Assembly: GCA_963744145.1 (NCBI GenBank) | Contig: CAVUSO010000001.1 | Location: 2,656,001 to 2,720,000, forward strand | Origin: an uncultured cyanobacterium | GTDB taxonomy: Bacteria > Cyanobacteriota > Cyanobacteriia > Cyanobacteriales > CAWUOF01 | DNA length: 64,000 nt | Direction: 5' to 3' | Part shown: positions 3,693-18,154 of the stretch, piece by piece | How positions within the stretch are numbered: the first letter of the stretch is position 1 | Layout of the letters: every line of letters starts with the position of its first letter | Position numbers and translations under genes: made by a program | The notes under the pieces: model-generated | Seen by the model: only the letters and a program-made list of their open reading frames with translations | Databases searched by the model: none | Told to the model about the DNA's origin: nothing

Positions 3693-5531
3693 ATGAGCGT
3701 TTTTCTGATTTTGAAAATCAAAATTTCAGCAATGGTTAACAAATGGCTTTTGGAAATTTGGACAAGCAAGTTTTTGCCAAATCATCAGGATTCTATCCCG
3801 CAAGTTTATGATGTGGAAGCGCGATCGCTTTTTTCCCAACCCACCAGGTCGATCGCTAAATCAATCTGGGGGAAAATGAGTAGCGCGATCGCTCTGATTA
3901 TTATTGCTGCTACGGGAATTACCTATGGGCAAATTAGAGATTTTTTTACCTCGATTACTCTAGCACAATTGCGCCAAACTGTCAATGAACGTGCCCAGCA
4001 AGAACAATCAATATTGTTGTTAGTAGAAGAACACCATGCTCTCCTGAAAAAAGAATTACTCCAACGACTAAAAGAACACCCCGATCGCAATGCTCAAAAA
4101 GAACTCCAACAAGAATTTGACCGTTTATTGGTGAAGGAGCGAGATGGGACAATTCGGACGCGCAAAGTAGGATTTGATCTGCAACAACAAGCAGGTGTAT
4201 ATATTAGTAATCGGGTGAAATTAACTGCTGAAATAGTCCAGCGAGTGTTAATATTTAATGATTTAGCTAGTCATCATGGTTCAGCTTGGAGTCAGAATTT
4301 TCAGAATCTATATTTTACTGCTCCAGAAAATATTATGGTTAGTTATTGGTCAGCATTTCCCTGGACTGAAAATATCAGCAATAGTACAAATATCTTTAAT
4401 CAAGAATATGTTCATTTTGGTGAAAAAAAGAATAATTCCCAGCGTCAAACAGTTTGGACGAGACCCTATGACAATGAGTTAGTCAAGGAATTAATGATTT
4501 CTTGTGTGACTCCAGTTGATTTTAATGGTAAGCATATTGCTAATATTACGACGGACTTATTTTTAGATGATCTGCTGAAGCGATCGCTAAAAAAGAATCT
4601 ACCCAAAACCTATAATATAATCTTTCGCAGTGATGGTGATTTAATCATTCACCCAGATTTTATGAATCAGCTCCAGAAGAAAAAAGGGAAATTAAATATT
4701 AATCAAATCCATGATCCTCAAATCCAGCGGATTTTTCAACTTGTCAAAAATCACCCGACAGGAGAGGTAGTATTAGATAATAAACTAGATGATCAATATC
4801 TAGCTGTCACTAAGATTAACGGTCCAGATTGGTATTTAGTTACAGTCTACCCCAAATCAGTATTGATGCAACCAGTTTGGGAAATATCAAGGTTGGTTTT
4901 GCTATTAGGACTGCTGTCATTGTGTCTAGAAATAATTATCTTATATTGGTTACTTCGTCAACAAATATCTACACCTTTAAATAAATTAATTAAAGTAGCT
5001 GAAATAGTTGCTCTGGGAAAAGATCAGAACAAATTAACACTACCGATCCATCAACATCAAGATGAAATTGGCTGTTTGATATCTTTATTTAAAGCGATCG
5101 CAACACAAGTTCGCGATCGACAGGAGCAGGAAAAAGTAGCAACTTCTTTGAGTGGGATTTCTCCCGAAGTACATGATTATCTCCATCTAATTATCGATAA
5201 TTTAGTCGATGGATTTATGGTAGCGGATATCGATAATAAAATTAAAATGTTTAATCCAGCGATCACCAATTTATTTAAGTTGGATAGTAAAGATTTATTA
5301 GGACAAGATATTGAGAAAGTTTTTGGAAGTCAAGTGGCAAATTTAGTCACTCAAACTAGAACTAATTTAGGACAGTTATTTAAGACCGAGATTCTCTTAG
5401 AGGGAGATCGTATTGGTCAGGTATTAGCCACATCGATGAAAATAAATATTGTTCCTGAAGATCATAATACCATAAAAACCAACTGGATTGCTTCAGTAGT
5501 AATGATCCAAAATAGTAACGGACACTTATGA
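3693..5531 (+). CDS. Membrane sensor with Cache-HAMP-PAS domains and no recognisable output domain
   Basis: Two TM segments flank a Cache-like region (WTRPY...MISCVTPV, WYLVTVYP), followed by HAMP (PLNKL...DEIG) and PAS (IIDNLVDG...FNPA). Ends without an H-box or GGDEF. Start codon uncertain. Confidence 0.7.
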   Translation: MSVFLILKIKISAMVNKWLLEIWTSKFLPNHQDSIPQVYDVEARSLFSQPTRSIAKSIWGKMSSAIALIIIAATGITYGQIRDFFTSITLAQLRQTVNERAQQEQSILLLVEEHHALLKKELLQRLKEHPDRNAQKELQQEFDRLLVKERDGTIRTRKVGFDLQQQAGVYISNRVKLTAEIVQRVLIFNDLASHHGSAWSQNFQNLYFTAPENIMVSYWSAFPWTENISNSTNIFNQEYVHFGEKKNNSQRQTVWTRPYDNELVKELMISCVTPVDFNGKHIANITTDLFLDDLLKRSLKKNLPKTYNIIFRSDGDLIIHPDFMNQLQKKKGKLNINQIHDPQIQRIFQLVKNHPTGEVVLDNKLDDQYLAVTKINGPDWYLVTVYPKSVLMQPVWEISRLVLLLGLLSLCLEIIILYWLLRQQISTPLNKLIKVAEIVALGKDQNKLTLPIHQHQDEIGCLISLFKAIATQVRDRQEQEKVATSLSGISPEVHDYLHLIIDNLVDGFMVADIDNKIKMFNPAITNLFKLDSKDLLGQDIEKVFGSQVANLVTQTRTNLGQLFKTEILLEGDRIGQVLATSMKINIVPEDHNTIKTNWIASVVMIQNSNGHL

Positions 5532-5926
5532 ATATGATTTTAGGATTTGATCCAGGACGAGATAAATGTGGTTTAGCGGTAATGGGAAGCGATCGTCAAA
5601 TTTATGATCACCAAGTTGTCCCAGCGATCGCAGCTTTGACGGTAATTACATCTTTATGTGCAAAATTTCCTATTTCCTTAATAGTTATGGGTGATCAAAC
5701 TACTGGGAAAGAGTGGAAACAAAAGGTGATGGAAATTTTGCCGACTTTACCGATCGTGATGATTGATGAACGTTATTCCAGTTTAGAAGCTCGCGATCGT
5801 TATTGGCAAATGTATCCTCCAACTGGTTGGTCTGCTTTGATTCCCCAAGAAATGAGGTTACCACCAGGTCCCATTGATGATATCGTAGCAATTGTTTTGA
5901 TTGAAAGATATTTGCAGAAGAGTTAA
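5528..5926 (+). CDS. yqgF: YqgF/RuvX family pre-16S rRNA nuclease
   Basis: ILGFDPGRDKCGLAV, DERYSSLEAR and IDDIVA motifs. Confidence 0.85.
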   Translation: MNMILGFDPGRDKCGLAVMGSDRQIYDHQVVPAIAALTVITSLCAKFPISLIVMGDQTTGKEWKQKVMEILPTLPIVMIDERYSSLEARDRYWQMYPPTGWSALIPQEMRLPPGPIDDIVAIVLIERYLQKS

Positions 5927-5963
5927 AATCTTCTAATTAGTGATCTAAGCTAGAGGAATTTTT

Positions 5964-7193
5964 ATGTCTTTGTCTAATCCCAATCAACCTCGTCTCTTAT
6001 CTTTTGCTCTCGACGATTCTCCTGTTCTCGGTAGACGAGTTTCCTTGTCATTGACCAACGGATTTGGAGTATTGGTTGGTCGAAATGGAGCTGGAAAATC
6101 AGCTATTATCGAAGGGTTGGAAGCTATATCATTAAGTGCTACTGGTAGAACTAACCAGAGAAATCTACCAAAGGATAGCGATAGCATTCCCAAAAAATTA
6201 GATATCGAAATTTTGACACCGACTGGTCGTCAGTTACAATACCATTATGAGCTGATAACTACAACTATATCTGCTGACGATCCAGACATAGATGACTCCA
6301 CAAATGATAGATCAGAAGAGAGCCAATTTTCCTGGAATGACTACTGTCAATACATTGATGGACAGAAAGAAGTTCTATGGACTACTAACACTGGAGTAAC
6401 GACCTTCAATCAGGAAGATGATCCAATTATTCTTGGTCGTATTAGCTCACTTGTACTTGAACGATTGTATCTACCAAAAAACTTACAACAAATAAAGTCA
6501 ACTAATGAAATGCAGTGGGTTTACGCTGTTTTGAAAGGAATTCGTATTCTGGGAAAGGTTCCTGTTCGTAGAACTTCTAGACGTAGACCATCTCAGATCA
6601 GAGTATTCCATAAACGTACTATTATTGGTGTTGATGATATAATAGATAGACTGACTCATAAAATAATTCGTCTAGATCTGGAAGAACTTGATGAACTTAA
6701 AGCAGTTTGTCAACGAATTGGACTTGGAAACGAGATCACTATACAGAAGTTTGTTTTAAGTGGGACATCTGGAGAGAAACTTGAAAGTGAAGATGAAGAA
6801 CATTTCATTTCAGTATTATTAGATGGGGTCAATATCGGGTTGCTCTCTGACGGAACACTTCGGATTTTATCGATTCTGTTAGAAATAATTCCATCATCTT
6901 CTAGTACAACGACAATAATTGAAGAACCTGAAACACAAATTCATCCAGGTCTGCTCTCAAAATTACTAAATGAGATTGAGAGCTATACTTTTGGAGAAAA
7001 TTTAGTTATCTCTACTCATTCGCCACAAGTAGTCTCATGGACTAGTCCAGACAAAATTAATTTAGTTTATCGAAATCATGGACAGATATTTGTGCGGAAA
7101 CTAGGTAAAAACGAAATCCAAAGGGTTGTCGAATATCTTTCAGAAGATGGCAACTTAGGTGAATGGATTTACGGTGGTATAATCGATGAGTAA
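5964..7193 (+). CDS. ABC-type ATPase (AAA_21/AbiEii-like), defence-associated
   Basis: Walker A GRNGAGKS, signature LSDGT, Walker B IIEEPE and H-loop STHSP. Its stop overlaps the start of a decayed partner gene. Confidence 0.85.
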   Translation: MSLSNPNQPRLLSFALDDSPVLGRRVSLSLTNGFGVLVGRNGAGKSAIIEGLEAISLSATGRTNQRNLPKDSDSIPKKLDIEILTPTGRQLQYHYELITTTISADDPDIDDSTNDRSEESQFSWNDYCQYIDGQKEVLWTTNTGVTTFNQEDDPIILGRISSLVLERLYLPKNLQQIKSTNEMQWVYAVLKGIRILGKVPVRRTSRRRPSQIRVFHKRTIIGVDDIIDRLTHKIIRLDLEELDELKAVCQRIGLGNEITIQKFVLSGTSGEKLESEDEEHFISVLLDGVNIGLLSDGTLRILSILLEIIPSSSSTTTIIEEPETQIHPGLLSKLLNEIESYTFGENLVISTHSPQVVSWTSPDKINLVYRNHGQIFVRKLGKNEIQRVVEYLSEDGNLGEWIYGGIIDE

Positions 7194-7582
7194 TTGCGTG
7201 ATTGGCTTGATTGCTGAAGATGATACAGATTGTGATACAACCGAAAGAAAAATTAATAGATTTGTCGATTGGTGCAAATAGGAAACCACGTTATAGCACA
7301 ATCCGGTTCAGTTAAGATTTTACTATATATAGTTGATCTGTTTGTTGCATAAATGGTGGGCAAAGCATTTCGGTAATATTCTTCTTCCCTTCGACTTCGC
7401 TCAGGGCAAGCGTTTTAACCATCATTTATGCGCCGAAATGCTTTGCCCCTACAGTGAACTGAACCCTATTGCGTTATAGTACAAATATGAATGTTGAACT
7501 AGCGGAAAAACTAAATATAGAAATTTGCTCCGATCGCTGTCCTTCATTTAAAAAACTGCGTGATTTTCTTCTATCATTATAG
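7186..7582 (+). pseudogene. Remnant of a DUF4276/TOPRIM-like ATPase partner gene (internal deletion plus MITE insertion)
   Basis: The 5' end encodes MSNCVIGLIAEDDTDCD. After removing 7299-7471 and one TSD copy, another frame reads QPKEKLIDLSIGANRKPRYSTNMNVELAEKLNIEICSDRCPSFKKLRDFLLSL* (TAG 7580-7582). The family call rests on the termini only. Confidence 0.7.
7299..7471. mobile_element. MITE (173 bp) with terminal inverted repeats and a 10-bp TSD
   Basis: Ends are CAATCCGGTTCAGTT and AACTGAACCCTATTG (13/15 IR). Flanks are CGTTATAGCA (7289-7298) and CGTTATAGTA (7472-7481). Internal hairpin GGGCAAAGCATTTCGG...CCGAAATGCTTTGCCC. Confidence 0.8.
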
Positions 7583-7838
7583 AGATATTGATAATTTGTT
7601 TTATTGATAAAATGGCAGAATAAAATTATGTTATTTAAGCTAACTAAAAGGTTTACTGAAAAAGTAATACCAATTTCATAGATTACAATACTTCGGGCAG
7701 TTTTTGGTTGCCAACGGTAGAATAAGGGTTTCATCAACCTATTACTTTTGCTGTGTCAATGAAAAATCAAGGGTTTCAGGCTATGACCTAAAAACGGTTT
7801 GGACTATTGATATCTGACATTCTTTTCAGAAAAGATTA

Positions 7839-7867
7839 TTGACATTCCTCAAAAGGAATATTATCAT
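7839..7867 (+). promoter_or_regulatory. Sigma70-type promoter with an overlapping palindromic operator for the TA-CHAT operon
   Basis: TTGACA (7839-7844), 17 bp, then TATCAT (7862-7867). The spacer contains ATTCCT-caaa-AGGAAT. A second IR, TCTTTTC-a-GAAAAGA, lies just upstream. GAGGT RBS precedes ATG 7883. Confidence 0.7.
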
Positions 7868-7882
7868 TAGAGGTAAGATGTA

Positions 7883-8284
7883 ATGTGGACTTGGGAGTTA
7901 TACCAAAACATCAACGGAGAAGTCCCCAAAGAGCTACTGGCTTTCTTTATTAGAATGATCCCAGAGGATGAACTGCCAATTGCCCCACCGTCACCAGTGC
8001 TGACCCCAGCAGAAACTAAGAGGCTCCAAGTCAATCTCGGATACCTCTGTTCTAAAGGTTTAGCGTCTCTGATGAGCGACATTTTCGAGAAACTGGAGGA
8101 TGACCTGTACGAGTTACGCATGACCAAAAGCGAACATAACCCTAGATTTATCCTAACTCCTGTGACTCCCCAGCGATTTGTAGTGCTGCACGCTTTTATG
8201 AAGAAATACAACGGTGCTATTAAAGATAAAGATAAAGAACCAGCAAGACAAAGACTACGCGAACTTAAGACGCGAGAAAATTAA
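7883..8284 (+). CDS. RelE/HigB-like (Gp49/DUF891-type) toxin
   Basis: LYELR...PRFIL...FVVLHAFMKK...ARQRLREL pattern. Toxin-first order, with TAATG overlap into an HTH gene. Confidence 0.75.
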   Translation: MWTWELYQNINGEVPKELLAFFIRMIPEDELPIAPPSPVLTPAETKRLQVNLGYLCSKGLASLMSDIFEKLEDDLYELRMTKSEHNPRFILTPVTPQRFVVLHAFMKKYNGAIKDKDKEPARQRLRELKTREN

Positions 8285-9030
8285 TGAGCAAGCAGTACAA
8301 CTTTCAAAATTGGCTCCAAACCAAAATAAGTGATGACCCAGAGGTGGTTTTGGCTGAAAAATTAGAGTATCTGCGGCTTTACCTGACTGATACAATGCGG
8401 GAGTTACGGATTAAAGCGGGATTGACTCAAGCACAGTTAGCTGAAAAATTAGAAGTACAACAAGCAGCAGTATCTAAGCTGGAGTCAGCACTTAAAGATC
8501 ATGAGTTAGAGTCGGTCCTAAACTATTTGCATAAATTAGATGCAGATTTACTGGTAGCTGTCAAACAGGGAGATGAACTTTATCAAGTAAGTGACAATTC
8601 TGGGACGGTGCTAGTAGACATACCAATTGAAGTCCAAGAACTAGCAATCTCAAAAGGGATGAGTCTGCGCGATTATGTTCAGACAGCAATCAAGCACTTT
8701 TCACCCAAGAGTAGAACAGTTAGAGAATCAGTGACAGCTTTTTTGGAGAGTAATGACCCAGTTGCTGTACAGGTAAGGGAGAGATTGAAAGCTAAATCCT
8801 CAGAAGAAATTGCGATCGAGTTGGAAAAATGTCTGAGCATTTCCGATGAAGAAGACCGGATTTTCGCTGTTAAAAATGCTTTAGCTGGAGGGATTAGAAT
8901 TCGTGATAATAACCGCGATATTAGTGATAAAAATGATGAAATTGAATTGCTGGATTTAGCTGAGAGTCTGTTGGAAAAATTGACAGATATTTGGGATTAT
9001 ACTGTTGAGTATTTGGGGAATAGCGAGTAA
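8284..9030 (+). CDS. XRE-HTH (HigA-like) antitoxin with a long C-terminal extension
   Basis: MRELRIKAGLTQAQLAEKLEVQQAAVSKLES HTH. The C-terminal 73 aa are homologous to the C-terminus of 9476..10060. Confidence 0.8.
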   Translation: MSKQYNFQNWLQTKISDDPEVVLAEKLEYLRLYLTDTMRELRIKAGLTQAQLAEKLEVQQAAVSKLESALKDHELESVLNYLHKLDADLLVAVKQGDELYQVSDNSGTVLVDIPIEVQELAISKGMSLRDYVQTAIKHFSPKSRTVRESVTAFLESNDPVAVQVRERLKAKSSEEIAIELEKCLSISDEEDRIFAVKNALAGGIRIRDNNRDISDKNDEIELLDLAESLLEKLTDIWDYTVEYLGNSE

Positions 9031-9095
9031 TTTTGAATCTAGGAAACAATCCATAAAAACCTATAAATAAGCAGATTAGGACAGGTAAAATTAAA

Positions 9096-9479
9096 TTGAT
9101 TTTTGATGAAGTTAAGCGAATAGCTGTTGTGCAAGCAATTAGGAGAGTTAGAGAGCAAATTATTTGGAAACAGGGAAAAGCTAATCCTCATCTGGTCAAA
9201 AGAATTCGCTTAGGTCATTTGCCAGAAGATGCTACTATTGAACAATATAATGCCATCATCACTTTTGTAGTTAATAACAATGATTCCAATGTTTATGTAT
9301 ATGTTTTTGGAGAAATGATTTATCCCACAATAGTAGCTAATATGGAAAATAGAATTTGGCTAGTAATGATAGGATTAGATGGGGTTTTAGAAACTTCCTT
9401 TCCTCCCGATGACCCCGAAGGTTATCTAGCTAAATCAGAGTTTATTTATCTAGGTTCAGTTAAGGAGTTAGAAATATGA
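9096..9479 (+). CDS. Hypothetical protein, possible small RNase-type toxin
   Basis: 127-aa ORF (HLVKRIRLGHLP...WLVMIGLDGVLETSFPPDDPEGYL) with ATGA overlap into the next gene. The toxin role is inferred from size and gene order. Confidence 0.5.
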   Translation: MIFDEVKRIAVVQAIRRVREQIIWKQGKANPHLVKRIRLGHLPEDATIEQYNAIITFVVNNNDSNVYVYVFGEMIYPTIVANMENRIWLVMIGLDGVLETSFPPDDPEGYLAKSEFIYLGSVKELEI

Positions 9480-10060
9480 ATCCTCTCTTAAAAAACTATT
9501 GTGTGAGTGTCGAGTTTCCTGATGTCAGTGGTGCGGAGCATTTAGAAATGCTGCTAATTCGCGATCGCTTAACAAAGATTGAGTCTCAATTCACTGATGA
9601 AGAAAAAAACTTACTGACAAAAGCAGATCGTCTATTAGTTGAGAAAGCCAATGATTTTTATCAGGAATTATCGCGCTTTGTCAATTTAGCAGAGAGACGA
9701 AAAGCTCAAATGATCCCTCCTCAACGTTGGTGGTGGTATTTAGATGCAATCCAGGTTGTAAAAGGATTTTTAGCAAGCGATTATCCAGCAGCCGTTTGGG
9801 TGCGAGAAAGTCATAGTTCTCTAGCTGTTAGAGTACAACAGCGACTAGAAAATGAGGGATTGCCTCAAATTGTTGCATACTTAGAACAATGCTTAAGTAT
9901 TACCGATGAATTTGACAGACTTGGTGCTGCACAAAAGATTTTGGCTGGGAACTTGCTTAATGCCGATAATAATCGCAATTTAAGTGATAATAATGATTCA
10001 ATTGAGTTACTAGATTTAGCTGAAAGCTTGTTAGAGAAATTAGAAAAATTTCATCAATAA
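9476..10060 (+). CDS. Hypothetical protein: acidic helical N-domain (WWWYLD) plus the shared C-terminal domain; putative antitoxin
   Basis: Translationally coupled to 9096..9479. The C-terminus aligns ungapped with that of 8284..9030. Confidence 0.6.
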   Translation: MNPLLKNYCVSVEFPDVSGAEHLEMLLIRDRLTKIESQFTDEEKNLLTKADRLLVEKANDFYQELSRFVNLAERRKAQMIPPQRWWWYLDAIQVVKGFLASDYPAAVWVRESHSSLAVRVQQRLENEGLPQIVAYLEQCLSITDEFDRLGAAQKILAGNLLNADNNRNLSDNNDSIELLDLAESLLEKLEKFHQ

Positions 10061-10074
10061 AAAATACACTTTAT

Positions 10075-13000
10075 ATGGGAAAGAGATCGGATTATACTAG
10101 CAAAAAAACACAGAATTTACAGTCCCAAGAAGTATATCGCAAGTTAATTAAAGCGTTACTAAACTGTTCTGATGAGCAAAGACCTAAGATTTTTGATGCT
10201 CACCTAGAAATAATTGATACTGGATTTATCCAAACAATGGAACAGGTGGCATTTGAAATGGCTAAAGAAGGTGATGAAAGTGCTTCGTACTTTTTGAGAA
10301 ACTTTGCCGCACAGTTAGCTGCACAAACTGTTTGGATGGAGCTATTAAAAGCTACCTATAACAATAGTAATCGACAGCAAGTAGTCTATTCTATTTTGGA
10401 TGCTCACCAAGGTAAACTTAATAATAGTTTTGCTGAAGTAATAGAAAATTGGGCAATAGATACCTGGCCTATAATCTCGTTAGAGCAGGCAGTTGTTGTT
10501 GCGGGAACAATGATCATTTTCAGTGACTTGATTATGAAGTTTCCTAGAGGTAGCAAATCTGGCAATTTGGAAATTGCACTCACTTGCTGTCAAAGTGCCT
10601 TGCAAATTCTTACTAAAGAGGCTTTCCCTGAACTTTGGGCTATGGCTCAACAAAATTTAGGCAATGCTTACTGTAATCGCATCCGTGGAGACAGAGCAGA
10701 AAATATAGAACAAGCAATTAACTGCCATCAAAATGCTTTGCTAGTTCACAATTATGAAGCTTTTGTCTATGACTGGGCTAGTATTAAAATTGATCTGGGA
10801 AATGCCTATTATTTTAGAGTACGAGGTAAGCAAGCAGAAAACATTGAATTAAGTATTCACTCCTTCAATGATGCCTTACAAGTTTTGAATCAAAAAAAAT
10901 CCCCAGAACTATGGGCTATGGCTCAAAATAATTTGGCAAATAGTTACGGCTATCGTATCTTTGGAGATGTTGCAGAAAATATCGAACAATCGATCATTTG
11001 CTATGAAAATGCTTTGCAGGTCTACACTTTTAAAGCTTTTCCTGAATTATGGGCTATGGCTCAACAAAATTTAGCAGGTGCTTATGGGAAACGTCGCCGA
11101 GGCAACAAAGCAGATAATCAGGAACAGGCAATTTCTTGTTATGAAAATGCTCTACAAGTTTACACCCGCGAAGTTTTTCCAGAAATGTGGGCTTTGGTAC
11201 ATCGTAACTTAGTATGTACTTACTGCGAACGTATCTATGGAATACGAGCAGAAAATATAGAACGAGCTATAATCCACTGTAAAAATTCCTTACAGGTTCG
11301 TACTCGTGAAGCTTTTCCCCAAGATTGGGCTATGGCTCAAAATAGTTTAGCGAATGCTTACCTAGCTCGTATTTATGGAGAACGAATTGCTAACCTAGAA
11401 CAAGCATTTGCCTGTTACAATTATGCCTTACAGATCTATATTCGTGAAACTTTTCCAAATGATTGGGCTTTAATCCAGAGTAATTTAACAGTTGTATATA
11501 AAGAATTACAACAAATTTCAAAAGCCATTCAATCCGCCCAATTAGCTTTAGAAATTTATACCCCTACTTCAAATCCTTTGGAGTGCTTCAGAACTGGATG
11601 CAATCTTGGTATAATTGCCTTCACCGATAAAAGATGGTCTGAAGCTATTATGGGATTTAGTGTAGCTATTGAAGCAGTCGAAACTAATCGTAGTTGGACA
11701 ACTTCTGAATCTCGCCGTCAACAAATTTTGGAAGAAGCTAATATTATCTATATGCGGATGGTGCAAGCTTGTATTAATGCTAGTCAACTAGATAAAGCAA
11801 TTGAAACTGTCGAACGTTCCCGGTCTAAAAGTCTTGTAGACTTAATGGCAAGTAATGACCTTTACTCTGGGGGCAATATACCTTCGGAAGTGCAAGAATT
11901 ATTGCGGCACTATGAAGACTTACAAAAGCAAATTGACTCTGAACTTTTTTCCAATAATTCTGATATTAACCGAGAATTTAGGGAAGTAGAAAGTAGCATT
12001 CAGAAACGTGCTGCTTTTCAAGCTTACAATGAAGCGATCGCCACCCTAGAGATCCAAAAAACTAAAGTCTTTGAACAAATCAGAAAATTAGACCCTGTGC
12101 TTGCAGGTGGAATTCAAGTTAGCGTTATCAGATTTGACCAGATGCAGAGACTCATTGATCAACCAAATACTGCTATTCTGAGTTTCTATACCACTACCGA
12201 AAACACTTATATCTTTGTTCTACGGCAAAATCAGTCAACTCCCTATCTGCATACTTGTATAGGACAAGGAATAGAAACATTACAAAATAAGATTTCTCTC
12301 AATTGGTCGCAGCCATATCTTAAAGATAAAAGCACTTGGCAGTCTCAGCTAAATGATTTCTTGGCTGAACTAGCTCAACGTCTGCAAATCGATAACCTGA
12401 TTGACCACTATCTCCAAGGTATTGAAGAACTAATTTTAGTACCTCATCTTTTATTGCACCAAATTCCTCTTGCAGCTTTACCGATTCAGGATACTGAACA
12501 TTCCTATCTGGGTGACAAATTCCAAATTCGCTATGTCCCCAGTTGCCAAGTTCTAGAATTCTGTCAAGAACGAGAACACCAACACCCAATTGGAGATTCT
12601 CTTCAGTATGGTGTCATTGCAAATGCTACGGAAGACCTGCCCTGTGCCAGTTTTGAAGCGGAGAAAATTGCTAATCTATTCAACATCCCTAAAAGCCAAA
12701 TTTTGCAAGGTCGCAGTGAAGCCACAAAAAATAACTATCGTCAGTTAGCTTCAAAAGTTCAGGTGCTACACTCCTGTCACCATGCCGAATCTCGTCTTGA
12801 TAAACCATTAGAATCAATACTAAAACTGGCAGATGAGACTCTGACACTGGGAGAACTGCTGACTCCAGGTTGGCGATTCCCGAACCTATCAGATGTATGT
12901 CTTTCCTGCTGTGAAACAGGTTTGGGAATACCCAAATCTCTATCCGATGAAATTATGACGCTCTCAACAGGTTTTTTATGTGCTGGGGCAAGAAGTGTTA

Positions 13001-13353
13001 TCAGTACCCTATGGTCAGTAGATGACTTGGCTACAGCCCTGTTTTTTATTTTCTACTATCAGAATCGACAACAAGGTAAAACCAGACCACAAGCTTTGCA
13101 GTATGCACAGAAGGAATTGCGATCGCTTACCCAAGAATATATCAACAAACTATATTTAGAAATAAAAGAAAAGTGTCAAAATGCTAGAAAAAACCGCAAT
13201 CAATATCCAGATGACTATTTAAAATGGAATACTGAATATCGCAAGTATGCCGCAGTGAGACTTGCCATTAACAAAGTGCTTGAAACTCGCGACAATAAAC
13301 CTTTCTCACATCCTAGATACTGGGCAGCATTCACCTGTTCCGGTTTGCGCTAA
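10075..13353 (+). CDS. TPR-repeat + CHAT (caspase-like) protease
   Basis: About eight 40-aa TPR-like repeats (FPELWAMAQxNLGNAY...ENIEQAI.CY.NALQV), ERSRSKSL, LVPHLLLHQIPLAAL, VLHSCHHA (His), LSCCETG (Cys), GARSVISTLWSVDD and HPRYWAAF. Confidence 0.92.
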   Translation: MGKRSDYTSKKTQNLQSQEVYRKLIKALLNCSDEQRPKIFDAHLEIIDTGFIQTMEQVAFEMAKEGDESASYFLRNFAAQLAAQTVWMELLKATYNNSNRQQVVYSILDAHQGKLNNSFAEVIENWAIDTWPIISLEQAVVVAGTMIIFSDLIMKFPRGSKSGNLEIALTCCQSALQILTKEAFPELWAMAQQNLGNAYCNRIRGDRAENIEQAINCHQNALLVHNYEAFVYDWASIKIDLGNAYYFRVRGKQAENIELSIHSFNDALQVLNQKKSPELWAMAQNNLANSYGYRIFGDVAENIEQSIICYENALQVYTFKAFPELWAMAQQNLAGAYGKRRRGNKADNQEQAISCYENALQVYTREVFPEMWALVHRNLVCTYCERIYGIRAENIERAIIHCKNSLQVRTREAFPQDWAMAQNSLANAYLARIYGERIANLEQAFACYNYALQIYIRETFPNDWALIQSNLTVVYKELQQISKAIQSAQLALEIYTPTSNPLECFRTGCNLGIIAFTDKRWSEAIMGFSVAIEAVETNRSWTTSESRRQQILEEANIIYMRMVQACINASQLDKAIETVERSRSKSLVDLMASNDLYSGGNIPSEVQELLRHYEDLQKQIDSELFSNNSDINREFREVESSIQKRAAFQAYNEAIATLEIQKTKVFEQIRKLDPVLAGGIQVSVIRFDQMQRLIDQPNTAILSFYTTTENTYIFVLRQNQSTPYLHTCIGQGIETLQNKISLNWSQPYLKDKSTWQSQLNDFLAELAQRLQIDNLIDHYLQGIEELILVPHLLLHQIPLAALPIQDTEHSYLGDKFQIRYVPSCQVLEFCQEREHQHPIGDSLQYGVIANATEDLPCASFEAEKIANLFNIPKSQILQGRSEATKNNYRQLASKVQVLHSCHHAESRLDKPLESILKLADETLTLGELLTPGWRFPNLSDVCLSCCETGLGIPKSLSDEIMTLSTGFLCAGARSVISTLWSVDDLATALFFIFYYQNRQQGKTRPQALQYAQKELRSLTQEYINKLYLEIKEKCQNARKNRNQYPDDYLKWNTEYRKYAAVRLAINKVLETRDNKPFSHPRYWAAFTCSGLR

Positions 13354-13366
13354 AAGCAATATTTGT

Positions 13367-14155
13367 TTAAGTTAATTCTCCCCGAAAAACTGTCACTGCT
13401 TGTCCACCTAAATATATCCGATCGCTAACATTACGAACTCTTACTATCCCTCCCCGTGAGGATGCTTGATAAGCTAAAAATTCATTTTTATTTAATCGCT
13501 CACTCCAGAACGGACCTAAACAACAATGAGCTGAACCGGTCACAGGATCTTCATTAACACCTGCGATCGGAGCAAAAAACCGTGAGACAAAATCATACTC
13601 AGATGAACTGGCTAAACTCGTAACAATTATACCGCGTACTGGTAGAGTTTTTAGTAACCCAAAATCTGGCTGAATTTGGCGAACTATTTCTTCTGACTCA
13701 ACTTCAACTAAATAGTCAAATTGGTTCTTCCCGACGGTGTTGATTTTTACTCCTAAAGCTGTCGCTAATTGCTCTGGTGCAGTACAAATTATTGGTGGTT
13801 TAGCGGGAAAATTCATTTCGATCCAATCACCTTGTTTTGTCGCACTAAGTAAACCACTCCGAGTATAAAATCTGGCTACTGTTTCTGGGTTTAAATAGGA
13901 TAATTCCCATAAAACATGAGCGCTAGCTAGAGTAGCATGACCACAGAGATCCACTTCTACAGTCGGAGTAAACCAGCGGAGATTAAACCCATCATCTTGC
14001 GGAACTAAAAACGCTGTTTCTGATAGGTTCATTTCCTGTGCTACATTCTGCATCCATTCTGGAGTTGCGGGTTCCTTTAAAATGCAAACTGCGGCTGGAT
14101 TACCGCTAAAAACTTGATTGGTAAAAGCATCTACTTGAATTAATATTGTACCCAT
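13367..14155 (-). CDS. PhzF family isomerase/epimerase
   Basis: QVDAFT...GNPAAV, EMNLSETAF, EVDLCGHATLA and EDPVTGSA motifs. Likely start MGTILIQ at 14155. Confidence 0.92.
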   Translation of the reverse strand: MGTILIQVDAFTNQVFSGNPAAVCILKEPATPEWMQNVAQEMNLSETAFLVPQDDGFNLRWFTPTVEVDLCGHATLASAHVLWELSYLNPETVARFYTRSGLLSATKQGDWIEMNFPAKPPIICTAPEQLATALGVKINTVGKNQFDYLVEVESEEIVRQIQPDFGLLKTLPVRGIIVTSLASSSEYDFVSRFFAPIAGVNEDPVTGSAHCCLGPFWSERLNKNEFLAYQASSRGGIVRVRNVSDRIYLGGQAVTVFRGELT

Positions 14156-14172
14156 AACTGAATATTTGTGGA

Positions 14173-14721
14173 TTATCTTTTTAAAATTAACTCTGATAAA
14201 ATTAAGGCAATATTCCAAGCATCATCTGATCCGCGATGGTGAATACCTTCGGGAACTAACCCTAATAACTCCATTGCTTCTAACATTCCTACTTCCTGGG
14301 GCCAAGCATGAATAACTGCAAACAAGTTTTTCACATTAATATGACTATAGCCAAAAGGATAACTAATATTTCGGCTGTGACATTGTTTTTCAAATTGCTG
14401 TCGATCGTAGTCTCCATAACTAGCCCAAACTCGATCTTTAGAAAAATATTTATTTCGCAAAATTGAACAAGCATTAGCAAAACTAAGACCTTGATCAACA
14501 TCTTTCTGGGTTAATGTGGTCAGTTCCGTACAAAAATTACTGACCTTTGAACGTTCTGGTTTGACTAAAATACTTCTTTTTTCCAGCCGCTTTCCTGACG
14601 CAATATCTACTGGACAAATCCCAATCTCAATAATCTCACTTTCCTGCCCCATCGGAGGATTGCCTTGCCAGCAAGTTGATTCTACATCAATGACAATAAT
14701 CTGATCTAGTTTTTTAGCCAT
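14173..14721 (-). CDS. DEDDh 3'-5' exonuclease (KapD/ERI-1-like)
   Basis: VIDVESTCW, EIIEIG and HHRGSDDAWN motifs. Likely start MAKKLD at 14721. Confidence 0.88.
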   Translation of the reverse strand: MAKKLDQIIVIDVESTCWQGNPPMGQESEIIEIGICPVDIASGKRLEKRSILVKPERSKVSNFCTELTTLTQKDVDQGLSFANACSILRNKYFSKDRVWASYGDYDRQQFEKQCHSRNISYPFGYSHINVKNLFAVIHAWPQEVGMLEAMELLGLVPEGIHHRGSDDAWNIALILSELILKR

Positions 14722-14817
14722 GCTTACCTCAATAATGAAATCATGCCACATCGATTTTCTTTGGCTCCAAAACTAACAAATTTATCTTGTGAGCAAATTC
14801 AGCGATCGGATTTTTTT

Positions 14818-16218
14818 CTAATGGTTGGGAGAATCGCAATCAGGAAGTCCGGAAACAAGTTCAGCCCGAAGTTGTTCCACAACTTGGTCTAGTTCGACTG
14901 CGTGGGAAGCTTTGAATAAAAGGCGATCGCCCGGTTGGACAAACTCTTTTAAGCGCTGCACTAATGATGGACGAACATGATCAACATCTAGCTCATAGAT
15001 TTCGATCAAGGGTAATCCTGTAGCACCAGTGGCCATAGCTTGAGCTTCAGCCCGATCGGCTATAATAAATAAAGCATCAAGTTGGAGCTGTTGAGCATAA
15101 GTTCCCACCTGTTGATGAAACTCGCTAGATCGCTCACCTAATTCCTTCATCGTCCCCAAGATCGCCAGATGACGTTTACCTGGAGCTTGGACTAACAGGT
15201 CTAAGGCTGCTAACATTGATTCTCGGCCAGCATTATAGGTTTCATCCAGAATCACAATATCATTAGCTAATTCATAACGCTGCGATCGCCCTGGTGGCAT
15301 TGGCACCGTAATACCCTGACTTAATGGTTCCCAGCTTACTTGCAGAACTTGCGCTACAGCTAAAGCGGCTAAGTAATTGAGAGCATTATGACGACCTGGT
15401 AGCGGTAAGGGCAACTCTACCCCATCTACTTGTAAAATATTTTGATCAATCAAAGTCCCTTGGAGATCACCACCTGCTAAACCATAAGTTACGGTTTTTC
15501 CTGACCAAACCCTAGCCGCAGTATCAATTAATCTTTGGTTATCCTGATTGAGAATCGCGGTTTGACTAGAAGACATTTCCGCTAATAATTCACATTTAGC
15601 TTCAGCGATCGCTGCTTCTGAACCCAGTAATTCAATATGTGCTGTCCCGACATTCGTAATTAAGCCGATGGTCGGTTCAGCAATTTGGGTCAGGATCGCT
15701 ATTTGACCCCGACCTCGCATGGCCATCTCAATCACGGCATAATCATGTTCTGGTGTTAGTTCCAGCAGAGTTTTGGGCACTCCTATTTCATTATTGTAAT
15801 TAGCGTAAGTCTTCAGAACAGCACCTTTTGTGCCCAAAACTGCGGCAATTAGTTCTTTAGTCGTAGTTTTACCAACCGAACCAGTTACAGCGATCACCGG
15901 AATCGAGAATTGACGACGCCACCAATTAGCGATATTTTGATAAGCCGCTAGGGTATCTTTGACAATGAATTGTGGAACTTTAATTGATAGGAGATGGTCA
16001 GTAATGACAGCGATCGCCCCTTGATCAATGGCGGTGCTCACAAATTTATGGCCATCAAACCGTTCTCCTCGAAGTGCCACAAATACTTCACCAGGTTGAA
16101 GACTACGACTATCAGTAGCAACTCCAGTAGCGACCAGCTGCATCTGATCATCAGAACAATTCACTGGGGTAGTTTTCAGGATTTGGATGAGTTGAGCTAG
16201 AAGTAAATGACAGGACAT
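14818..16218 (-). CDS. murF: UDP-N-acetylmuramoyl-tripeptide--D-Ala-D-Ala ligase
   Basis: TDSR, GERFDGH, AVTGSVGKTTTKE, NYNNEIGVP, DETYNA and LFKASH motifs. Confidence 0.96.
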   Translation of the reverse strand: MSCHLLLAQLIQILKTTPVNCSDDQMQLVATGVATDSRSLQPGEVFVALRGERFDGHKFVSTAIDQGAIAVITDHLLSIKVPQFIVKDTLAAYQNIANWWRRQFSIPVIAVTGSVGKTTTKELIAAVLGTKGAVLKTYANYNNEIGVPKTLLELTPEHDYAVIEMAMRGRGQIAILTQIAEPTIGLITNVGTAHIELLGSEAAIAEAKCELLAEMSSSQTAILNQDNQRLIDTAARVWSGKTVTYGLAGGDLQGTLIDQNILQVDGVELPLPLPGRHNALNYLAALAVAQVLQVSWEPLSQGITVPMPPGRSQRYELANDIVILDETYNAGRESMLAALDLLVQAPGKRHLAILGTMKELGERSSEFHQQVGTYAQQLQLDALFIIADRAEAQAMATGATGLPLIEIYELDVDHVRPSLVQRLKEFVQPGDRLLFKASHAVELDQVVEQLRAELVSGLPDCDSPNH

Positions 16219-16854
16219 GCTGAAAGATTCTATTTAATAAGGCCATCTAAGGTTATTATCCCAAGTAGGGAACTTTTGGATTACTTATTTTCCTCGTCTT
16301 CAGCAAATTTCTTTTGATCACAGTCCTGATTGGGTCTAGATGAGTTATTCATCTCCGGGATCACGATCTTGCTATCATCAGTATAAACACTGATATCTTT
16401 ATGAAAAGTTTAAAAATCCGATGGAAGTCTTTGGCTATTCTTTAAACAAGGAGATTGCTAATGTTGTAACCTTAAAAGTGTAGACCAAAGGGAATTTTTT
16501 GCTATTATTGATTAAGTCAGCAATGGCCACAAGCAGCTAACCTAAGGGGACGGGTAAAAATGAGCAAAAAAGACTAGAACTAAGTAGTCAAATTGTTTTT
16601 TCCCAGTTTAAGTGTTATAAAACACTGGTGTTAGATGATAAAAATCACATAGCAAGTTGATTAAAACAGTTAGACTTCAGTGAAATACGTTATGTAGAGG
16701 ACAAGAAAGAGGAAAATTTAAAACCTATGAAAATTGGTATGTTGATTAGCGGATCTCAGAATAATTAGCAGCAGCTAAAAAAAAGTTGGTTAGGAGTTTA
16801 AGTAAACAGGAGTAGCCTCACTTGGCTCTAAAAAGTGAGCAGGGGGTACAAAAA

Positions 16855-18154
16855 ATGAAACCTTTAACAGAACGTTACCATCGCCATACAATTGGCCCGG
16901 AAGAACAACTAATTTATGACCACTTCCTCGGTTTAGTGGAAGCAGAAGCACCCTCTCAAGTTCTAGAGCGGTTCCATAACTTATTTATCGAAGGTACAGG
17001 CTATCAAGACCAAAAGATTGTAGCAGCTTTAGAGAAGATTACCGCATCAACTCAAGCTGAACAAGAGTTTAGGTTTTTCGTTAATCGTTGCTGTCATATT
17101 TTAATTAACCGTTGGCAAATGCACCCACAAATGGCTGGGTCACTTGTTGATTTAGTAAATTTATTTGAAAAATCGGGTAACAGATTAGGAGGAGCAACTT
17201 GGACGTCCTCGTACTGCGAGACGTTTGCACGAACTAGTTCAAGGTTTTGTCCAAAGTGAGCAGTATCTAACGATTAAACGTTTGGCCACAGTAATCAATC
17301 AAGGGGTAGAAGCAGCTAATAATCCCACTAACAAACCATTGGGTACATTAATTCGCCGCTATCCCTATTTATACGCCCATTGTTTACTGAATGAAGATAG
17401 TGCCTACGAACATCAACAAACCGTGCGGCAGATTCAAGCCCAAGTCCAGCGGCAATATGAAATCAATTTGTCGCAATATGTAACATATCAAGTCAGACGA
17501 TCAGCGCGAGTGAATCGCAACAGTGTCAACCCACCACCAGGGCAAATTATCCAAACTATCAACAATCCTACCCTGTTGAGCGATCGGGAGTTATTCTCAG
17601 CGATTAAGCAATTTGTCGGCAAAGCAGAAGGTCCCTATAGTTACCGAGACTTAGCCCAACGCTTCATCACCCATTCCAGTCAAACCAACTCATTTGGAGC
17701 ATTTAAAGACGATCTATATGAATATTTAACATCTTCTGTCGATCCAGCCTATGGCAAAAGACAGTTTAACGATCGCTTATATAAACAATTACAAACCACC
17801 TTACCTCAGAGCGACTCACAAAAGTTAAGTGACTTCCTGATTGTGAGGACTTGTAGTCAGCTTTTAAACTTTGTAGTTGTCGATAATCCCCAAAAGCCAA
17901 ATCACTTTGTCTTCATTGACTTAATGACAAATTTAGGTGCAACTCTCACCACTGGTTTATTAATCAAAATTGTCCTAATTTGTCGGAAAGTCAAACCATA
18001 TCTAGAAAAGAGATTCTCGATTTTGTTTGATCATTATGAAACTCATACAGGAGATTCAATCAATTGGCTAGTTAAAGGACTAGAAAACTTAAATATAGCC
18101 CTGAGTATTCATTTTGGCTCTTTAGATTTGTCTTTTATGAGTAAAGTTGCTTAG
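16855..18154 (+). CDS. Conserved-looking cyanobacterial hypothetical protein split by an apparent frameshift near 17200-17225
   Basis: ORFs 16822..17259 and 17225..18154 overlap in different frames. The second lacks a convincing start, and the two read as one continuous helical protein. Confidence 0.6.

Follow-up and report, generated by a model that had tools for sequence, protein, structure and literature searches.

In animal apoptosis, caspase-3 cuts the inhibitor ICAD and frees the nuclease CAD, and in toxin-antitoxin-chaperone (TAC) modules a C-terminal extension ('chaperone addiction') makes the antitoxin depend on the product of an adjacent third gene. Among the described systems that come closest to the locus analyzed here, the orthocaspase MaOC1 of Microcystis aeruginosa PCC 7806 cleaves the antitoxin of an adjoining ParE/ParD-like pair, most likely in its C-terminal part, and its co-expression stops the growth of E. 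coli (Klemencic et al. 2021, PMC7935541). In the type III-E Craspase, the TPR-CHAT protease Csx29 cleaves Csx30, a protein whose binding partner is the sigma factor RpoE (Wang et al. 2022, PMC9825189). Kaur, Iyer, Burroughs and Aravind reported gene neighborhoods that combine an extracytoplasmic function (ECF) sigma factor, a DUF1822 protein, which they called a TPR protein, and an EACC2-caspase, and they proposed autoproteolysis of the caspase protein (2021, PMC8195603). TAC modules with HigB-type toxins are also mentioned in print (PMC11980606). Here we analyze a locus of five genes, G1 to G5, at positions 7883-13353 of a 64,000-nucleotide stretch of an uncultured cyanobacterium (contig CAVUSO010000001.1 of assembly GCA_963744145.1), this whole stretch being referred to as the window. 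Two of its proteins, G2 and G4, share a C-terminal tail, and both are encoded upstream of a TPR-CHAT protease, G5. We propose, giving the idea an even chance of being right, that the locus is a protease-gated double toxin-antitoxin module in which the CHAT protease cuts the tail-bearing inhibitors and frees their partners. The components are as follows, with positions counted from the first letter of the window.

7883..8284, + strand: G1, Gp49/HigB-type (RelE superfamily) toxin, 133 residues, Pfam PF05973
8284..9030, + strand: G2, HTH_3 antitoxin-like protein, 248 residues; HTH at residues 38-69, tail at ~148-241
9096..9479, + strand: G3, 127 residues, TTG start, predicted BECR-type RNase-toxin fold
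9476..10060, + strand: G4, all-helical protein, 194 residues; N-domain 1-94, tail 95-192
9956..9985, + strand: predicted disordered loop of the G4 tail, residues 161-170, with Asn166-Arg167 as candidate cleavage site
10075..13353, + strand: G5, TPR-CHAT protease, 1092 residues; CHAT at residues 766-1090 (Pfam E 2.1e-44)

The open reading frame (ORF) listing of the window places all five genes on the + strand. G1 and G2 overlap by one base within TAATG at 8284, a 65-bp gap separates G2 from G3, G3 and G4 overlap by ATGA at 9476-9479, and 14 bp lie between G4 and G5. On re-reading, this co-oriented layout with its overlaps and gaps was found exactly as a first-pass annotation, made by a model from the sequence, had given it.

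The locus resembles the MaOC1 system, as the account of that system presents it, in having a cyanobacterial clan CD cysteine protease gene beside a type II toxin-antitoxin pair. The two differ in that i) MaOC1 is an orthocaspase, whereas G5 is a CHAT protein that matched only CHAT and TPR families in Pfam and no Peptidase_C14, and ii) the described MaOC1 system comprises one pair, located after the protease gene, and no shared portable domain, whereas the window holds two unrelated pairs that share one conserved tail, also present on further classes of protein. With the EACC2-caspase neighborhoods the locus has in common the tail, which is a module of DUF1822, as well as the taxa and the caspase-type nature of the protease. 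In the passage of PMC8195603 concerned, the association is mentioned in one sentence, which holds neither a separable module nor an antitoxin fusion. Unlike the EACC2 systems, the locus has no sigma factor and no DUF1822 N-domain, and its protease has an N-terminal TPR part and a C-terminal CHAT domain in place of the EACC2-caspase-variable arrangement. The parallel to Craspase, in the outline published for it, is that a TPR-CHAT protease cuts an adjacently encoded protein that holds an effector or regulator, as is predicted for the window; no Cas7-11/gRAMP-sized ORF lies beside G5, which is the only ORF above 620 residues in 3693-17259. TAC modules likewise combine a Gp49/HigB toxin with an antitoxin whose C-terminal extension is tied to a third gene, but their SecB-like chaperone protects the antitoxin, whereas the protease of the window would be expected to destroy it. 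To caspase-3, ICAD and CAD there is no sequence relationship, and the likeness is an analogy of logic only.

Relatives of the architecture exist, and the first-pass annotation, which did not recognize it among described systems, needs amending on this point: the company that DUF1822 keeps with an ECF-type sigma factor and a caspase-type protease has been published (Kaur 2021, PMC8195603), and a caspase homologue that cleaves a neighboring antitoxin has been demonstrated with MaOC1 (PMC7935541). In the literature searched, supplements lying outside the search, we found no description of i) the central module of DUF1822 serving as a portable tail of antitoxins, of TRADD-N proteins and of further proteins, ii) an association of this module with CHAT genes, or iii) a coupling of TPR-CHAT proteins to HigB-type and colicin-D-like modules.

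G2 and G4 share a C-terminal tail

BLASTP aligned G2 with G4 at E 2e-24, with 49/95 residues identical and one 11-residue gap. An ungapped stretch of 73 residues (G2 161-233, G4 117-189) is identical at 42/73 positions and ends in both proteins in IELLDLAESLLEKL, and the N-terminal parts of G2 and G4 are unrelated; an earlier hand count had given exactly these figures, the same common end and the same unrelated N-termini. The tail, ~90 residues in length, is a three- to four-helix bundle with an exposed loop, in which an Asn-Arg is almost invariant, and a strongly conserved amphipathic last helix, ELLDLAExLLEKL. The G4 model is all-helical (predicted local distance difference test score, pLDDT, 74.8) and shows the tail as a bundle at residues 95-160 (pLDDT ~90), the loop at 161-170 (block mean 38; flanking helices 83-92) and the last helix at 171-193; no structural neighbor of this model stands out. 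An Arg occupies the loop position in 93% of 99 distinct tails, with variable residues at the neighboring positions. In G2 this residue is Arg211, within the motif NNRDISD encoded at 8908-8928.

Conservation in the tail is highest in its last amphipathic helix and not in the loop, as would be expected of a docking element. The tail might accordingly be a docking or inhibitory subunit and not a substrate, keeping the CHAT protein inactive or localized in the way that securin sits on separase; loss of labile antitoxins, for example upon shut-off of host expression, would then free the protease to act on other targets, with the toxins as a parallel output. The large size of CHAT proteins would allow them to bind several partners. 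We consider this explanation unlikely, as it leaves unexplained that every tail is attached to a protein that binds an effector-like partner of its own, and we return to it with the linkage and the protease.

A profile of 26 diverse tails, run against 1.84 billion representative proteins, matched 133 proteins at E <= 0.001 and 83 at E <= 1e-10. We scanned 77 of the 133 against Pfam, a hand-picked set of the longer matches (>= 152 residues) that excluded fragments below ~130 residues and some proteins of 147-172 residues. DUF1822 was found in 58 of these, HTH_3 alone in three, a TRADD-like N domain in two (one of them also with HTH_3) and TPR repeats in two; the remaining twelve matched no family. 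On proteins that Pfam calls DUF1822, the profile reached E values as low as 7.6e-29, and in long members of the family the matched stretch, residues ~161-260, falls within the Pfam envelope. G2 and G4 themselves gave no match to DUF1822 (PF08852) at E <= 0.1, and neither matches the family as a whole protein. Judged from these alignments, the tail corresponds to the central module of DUF1822, and this module is all that G2 and G4 have in common with the family. The tail is joined to at least six N-termini: HTH_3, the DUF1822 N-domain, TRADD-like N, TPR, the G4 N-domain and a further N-domain designated 'T3N'. Run against PDB sequences, the tail profile had its best match in a designed protein (E 0.08), and no solved chain, Csx30 included, was matched at E <= 0.01. 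The best match overall (E 2e-37) was a 245-residue protein, P0071, with two matched stretches, which may be a tandem two-tail protein.

The tail lies upstream of CHAT genes

A one-genome-per-species scan by pattern and tblastn yielded 105 confirmed tail matches, the best 80 of which were kept, corresponding to 75 loci; these were annotated with hidden Markov models (HMMs) built from the host genome's own components. All records in the scan were cyanobacterial except two contigs binned as Acetobacteraceae, and among the cyanobacterial records considered the tail family is confined to filamentous or multicellular cyanobacteria. The 75 loci contain 100 tail ORFs, whose N-terminal types are G2-like HTH (51), 'T3N' (29), DUF1822 (14), G4-like (2) and none recognized (4). 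Downstream and on the same strand, a CHAT ORF starts within 3 kb of 76/100 tail ORFs; eight run into a contig end, and sixteen have no CHAT ORF despite at least 4 kb of room. The order and strand of tail and CHAT genes are fixed, with a median gap of 96 bp between the last tail gene of a locus and the CHAT ORF. The host genome (7.7 Mb), whose tail genes have their nearest relatives in Floridaenema, Microcoleus and Kamptonema, carries seven tail ORFs, and the nearest co-oriented CHAT ORFs start 15, 24, 50, 144, 211, 1045 and 3733 bp downstream of them. The background is 127/6438 ORFs of at least 100 residues (2.0%) with a CHAT ORF within 3 kb downstream. Downstream of the long DUF1822 proteins, which contain the same module, the CHAT proteins have no TPR repeats, so that the CHAT domain, and not the TPR part, is the common denominator.

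Toxin-antitoxin modules gather in islands, and the linkage could in principle be devoid of mechanistic meaning if toxin-antitoxin pairs and CHAT genes merely pile up in variable islands and the tail is an oligomerization domain. The 85 CHAT matches in the genome, and thirteen tail genes that have neither CHAT nor TPR downstream, could be read in this way. Against this stand the contrast between the 2% background and the 76/92 evaluable tail genes, the fixed order and strand with the 96-bp median gap, the finding that the tail HMM detected only seven ORFs in the genome, all near CHAT, and the behavior of the tail in two unrelated gene pairs, where it goes in step with CHAT as set out in the following section. 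We regard an explanation by islands as very improbable.

To the right of the Nostoc modules lies a conserved flank that is retained where CHAT is missing (L057:9973-11783(+); also in L018, L019, L032, L042, L050, L071, L083, L038 and L068). It consists of a 200-residue ORF, a 209-residue ORF with Sigma70_r4_2 (E 2.8e-4) and a 360-residue TPR ORF.

Tail and protease gene are present or absent together in two gene pairs

Both gene pairs of the locus have relatives with and without the tail; the genomes compared are related and not independent samples, and no p-value is given for the comparisons. Homologues of G3 were found in 11/401 sampled cyanobacterial genomes, and their context was examined in the seven other genomes with a full-length match, three with partial matches on short contigs being excluded. 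In 6/7, G3 overlaps a lone G4 N-domain of 104-127 residues; the tail is absent, and CHAT was not detected within 6 kb. In L096, the seventh, G4 bears the tail, and a gene for a 982-residue TPR-CHAT protein lies 67 bp downstream.

The N-terminal 149 residues of G2, used as the query, matched in 12/401 sampled cyanobacterial genomes. Its five close relatives (E <= 1e-57) all carry the tail (5/5) and all have CHAT sequence downstream (5/5), intact in three, split in two in L119 and reduced to a fragment in L117. The six distant relatives (E 1e-13 to 1e-18, 120-174 residues) all lack both the tail and a co-oriented downstream CHAT gene (6/6); one has a convergent CHAT gene 2.7 kb away. Two unrelated gene pairs thus gain or lose the tail with the CHAT gene. 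For a tail that docks and is not cut, the same data would serve equally, since what they show is a coupling, in whichever direction it runs.

Four of the six tail-less G1/G2 relatives instead precede an overlapping gene for a ParA/AAA_31-type ATPase of 472-571 residues (L120:6313-8620(-), L122:6735-9365(+), L124:5725-7995(-) and L125:6742-9339(+)). The toxin-HTH core together with this ATPase is a different three-gene module.

Partners of the tail-bearing proteins

G1 matches Pfam PF05973 at E 2.4e-8 (34.4 bits, above the cut-off of 23.9) and G2 matches HTH_3 at E 2.1e-7. The toxin gene comes first and overlaps the HTH_3 antitoxin gene, which is the order of Gp49/HigB-HigA pairs, and a G1 homologue lies directly upstream of the HTH-tail gene in 51/51 cases. 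Members of the Gp49 family are described as ribosome-dependent mRNases encoded in the order toxin to antitoxin (PMC11980606).

Neither G3 nor G4 matched a family in Pfam, NCBIfam or PADLOC, and BLASTP gave no alignment between G1 and G3. The G3 model (pLDDT 89.1, predicted template modeling score 0.83) has three helices followed by an antiparallel sheet, and RNase toxins of the colicin D, CdiA-CT, MqsR or BrnT type account for all of its nine best structural matches; in a Foldseek search of the model against PDB no match reached E <= 0.001, and the top probability, 0.72, was that of MqsR. The residues K25, K28, H32, K35, R36 and H41 are conserved in the G3 alignment. On the strength of the model, G3 looks like a toxin fold of the colicin-D/RelE RNase type, and the N-domain of G4 (residues 1-94) is likely its immunity partner. 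Besides the window and L096, G3 lies directly upstream of 2/2 G4-type tail genes.

The other tail classes have upstream partners of their own. A conserved protein of ~231 residues, designated X, is encoded directly upstream of 25/29 T3N-tail genes. X belongs to no family (L116:7369-8100(-) and 28 further ORFs in L011-L082), and Atlas searches gave restriction-endonuclease-fold leads only, to the SinI family (0.90) and to MjaI and TaqI (0.88-0.89). A sigma-like ORF was found with a narrow HMM upstream of 4/13 DUF1822-tail genes, and the long DUF1822 genes have larger upstream ORFs of weaker similarity. In five loci of the host genome, a DUF1822-tail protein is accompanied by a sigma-like ORF and a CHAT protein. 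Sigma matches of these ORFs are all sub-threshold (NCBIfam E 0.05-0.13, SigW E 0.22, Sigma70_r4_2 0.085, r3 0.058), and we label them sigma-like mainly because of the neighborhoods outlined by Kaur et al. 2021 (PMC8195603). Two natural fusions of the sigma-like ORF with DUF1822 (L062:8761-9888(+) and L063:14429-15556(+); 375 residues, DUF1822 E 4.6e-30) support the view that the two normally work together. From the gene orders, the architecture appears modular: an effector or regulator, then a tail-bearing binder, then a CHAT protease.

The largest tail class, DUF1822 (58/77), is paired with these sigma-like ORFs in the host genome, and this raises the question whether the locus is a signaling switch and not a death switch. 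CHAT would in that event trim the tail and so alter what regulators do, namely the HTH protein and the sigma-like partners of DUF1822, and the result would be, in the development of filaments, a transcriptional program or a reversible arrest of growth, as opposed to phage defence. A transcriptional output is what Kaur et al. 2021 propose in their passage on these neighborhoods (PMC8195603). The restriction of the family to filamentous or multicellular cyanobacteria points the same way, as do the PADLOC collection, which holds no model for G2 or its tail, G3 or G4, and the viral contigs, in which 56 pattern matches included no confirmed tail relative. The partners in the window are, however, a Gp49/HigB toxin and an RNase-toxin-like fold, not regulators, and the Nostoc partner X gives a restriction-endonuclease lead, if a lead only; a purely regulatory role strikes us as improbable.

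The TPR-CHAT protease

G5 matches CHAT (PF12770, clan CD) and carries the motifs of the His/Cys dyad, VLHSCHHA (897-904) and LSCCETG (943-949), both of which had been picked out as candidate catalytic sites on first inspection of the sequence. The HH and CC pairs are invariant in 26 aligned tail-linked CHAT proteins. Its TPR part (10075-11750, residues ~158-470) has about seven 46-residue repeats; related proteins have up to ~18 such repeats and lengths from 792 to 1811 residues. With the NCBIfam Csx29 model NF041237, G5 scored 82 bits, below the cut-off of 300, and PADLOC gave a weak match to BovA (E 4e-5). Three lines of evidence lead us to favor cleavage of the tail-bearing proteins by G5: i) the catalytic motifs are invariant, ii) the tail has a loop with a conserved Arg, and iii) both studied relatives cleave a protein encoded by a neighboring gene. 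The last of these, as reported for the two precedents (PMC7935541, PMC9825189), also speaks against a tail that serves only for docking.

An HMM of the CHAT subfamily of tail-linked proteins detected six ORFs above 570 bits in the genome, the next scoring 366, and five of the six genes have a tail gene upstream. The tail-less one (G000:C1:2802571-2810658(-)) is preceded by an HTH-like ORF and an 832-residue subtilase-like ORF. A tail-profile match of 873 residues, P0136, is a DUF1822-DUF4114-subtilase (Peptidase_S8) fusion protein, and these systems may be linked with a further class of protease. Across the whole genome, many of the 85 CHAT-model matches stand in tandem clusters, for example at 6.96-7.00, 3.95-3.98 and 2.40-2.43 Mb.

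The promoter region and flanking sequence

Upstream of G1 we noted three features.

7822..7834, + strand: perfect palindrome CTTTTC-A-GAAAAG, just 5' of the -35 box; candidate second operator half-site pair
7839..7867, + strand: promoter-like site TTGACA-17-TATCAT, 11/12 positions matched, the best of the region
7844..7859, + strand: perfect palindrome ATTCCT-CAAA-AGGAAT within the promoter spacer; candidate operator for the HTH antitoxin

The alignment comprised nine upstream regions, which range from this lineage to Nostoc and Okeania (that of L010 was not alignable). The -35 box is kept in 7/9 and reads TTTACA in an eighth, and in 8/9 it is directly followed by a palindrome of the form ATTCYK-N4-ARGAAT. 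In L025 both arms of the palindrome have changed in a compensatory manner (ATTCTT/AAGAAT), so that the symmetry is preserved. An ATTCTT-N4-AAGAAT-like element, related to the palindrome at 7822-7834, occupies the same place in the Nostoc and Okeania loci. The region as a whole shows no excess of promoter-like sites (25 against 22.5 +/- 4.5 in shuffles), and the site at 7839-7867 carries weight because it is conserved in related loci. The promoter and palindromes have the look of an autoregulated type II operon, to which G2 would probably bind.

The 690-bp spacer 5' of the operon contains nested inverted repeats at 7347-7448, with 16-nt perfect arms GGGCAAAGCATTTCGG / CCGAAATGCTTTGCCC separated by 59 nt, that resemble a small repeat element or a miniature inverted-repeat transposable element. 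Just upstream, at 5964-7193 (+), lies a lone gene for a 409-residue AAA_21 / AbiEii-type ATPase with no obvious partner. Its likeness is to AriA, HEC-01A and AbiLi, with PADLOC E values as low as 7e-21, and to MAD3, with an NCBIfam match below the cut-off. We considered this ATPase as a sixth component and rejected it, its relatives being present in none of the related loci; it is a separate gene, possibly defence-related.

A model for the locus

Taken together, a model of a proteolytic switch can be drawn up. In this model, G1 would be a Gp49/HigB-type mRNA interferase held in check by G2, which consists of an HTH domain that probably represses the operon at the promoter palindromes as well, of a linker region and of the tail; G3 would be a colicin-D/RelE-fold RNase checked by G4 through its helical N-domain joined to the tail. 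The tail would be the element by which G5 recognizes both inhibitors. The TPR part of G5 would sense a signal, and the CHAT domain would cut the tail-bearing proteins, most likely at the exposed loop. Cleavage would inactivate or destabilize G2 and G4, and the release of both RNases would lead to growth arrest or cell death.

The first-pass annotation had read the locus as two tandem toxin-antitoxin pairs, had proposed to test with an HMM whether the tail lies beside CHAT genes and is joined to varied N-termini, and had inferred that one protease can destroy both antitoxins. The two-pair reading has gained support from the toxin-like G3 model and from the existence elsewhere of G3 with a tail-less G4 N-domain as a free-standing pair. 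The HMM test came out in favor, the tail lying upstream of CHAT far above chance. For the switch itself the support is partial: the linkage of tail and CHAT, the varied N-termini and the toxin-like fold of G3 favor it, and docking, cleavage and the place of the cut, the direction of the signal and the physiological outcome are the steps at which the model is predictive.

Several observations weigh against the proposed switch. Of the sixteen tail genes with room and no CHAT ORF, ten come from Nostoc, Okeania or Fischerella and three more are long DUF1822 genes; the other three, found in L021 and L046, precede TPR ORFs of 1286-1483 residues that extend beyond the sequence examined. Thirteen of them thus have neither CHAT nor a same-strand TPR ORF downstream, eight of these being Nostoc-type loci in which G1-G2 or X-T3N abuts the conserved flank, and it follows that tail-bearing pairs can persist without the protease. 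Conversely, one of the six CHAT genes of the tail-linked subfamily has no tail gene upstream. Over the last 36 positions, identity averages slightly higher within a locus (0.67) than between loci (0.62), a value reached by 0/5000 shuffles, and the two tails of Okeania are 97% identical over this part; the effect is small and is confounded by shared ancestry or gene conversion, either of which would account for it no less well than co-adaptation to a single protease. The choice of Asn-Arg as the cleavage site is a guess, CHAT-type enzymes being known to differ in cleavage specificity. Finally, co-transcription of G5 with the other genes is suggested solely by the 14-bp gap and by the result that no terminator-like site was found on the + strand in 7000-14500.

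A broader version of the proposed switch, which we advance tentatively and rate somewhat short of an even chance, is that one clade of CHAT proteases recognizes proteins by the DUF1822-derived tail, a tag that can be transferred between them. Multicellular cyanobacteria would have in it a plug-in system: an inhibitor that gains the tail would fall under the control of a caspase-like protease with a TPR sensor, and one sensing event would free several effectors. The carriers of the tag would then be the antitoxin of a HigB mRNase, the immunity protein of a colicin-D-like RNase, the binder of a nuclease-like partner, an anti-sigma-like DUF1822 protein and a TRADD-N protein.

The substrate choice of CHAT proteases is known for very few cases, and the activation of chromosomal toxin-antitoxin modules is an old open question. 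If the tail is a recognition element, it would explain the published association of sigma factor, DUF1822 and caspase, extend the MaOC1 case to a family-wide rule, and provide a sequence signature for CHAT substrates in cyanobacterial genomes that hold dozens of CHAT genes each. The locus is a compact test system, with a 90-residue module that could be transferred to a reporter, two toxins with separate inhibitors, and one protease with clear catalytic residues. Were the model true, these cyanobacteria would possess, by analogy, a bacterial version of the caspase-ICAD-CAD logic, in which one sensing event leads to several unrelated effectors.

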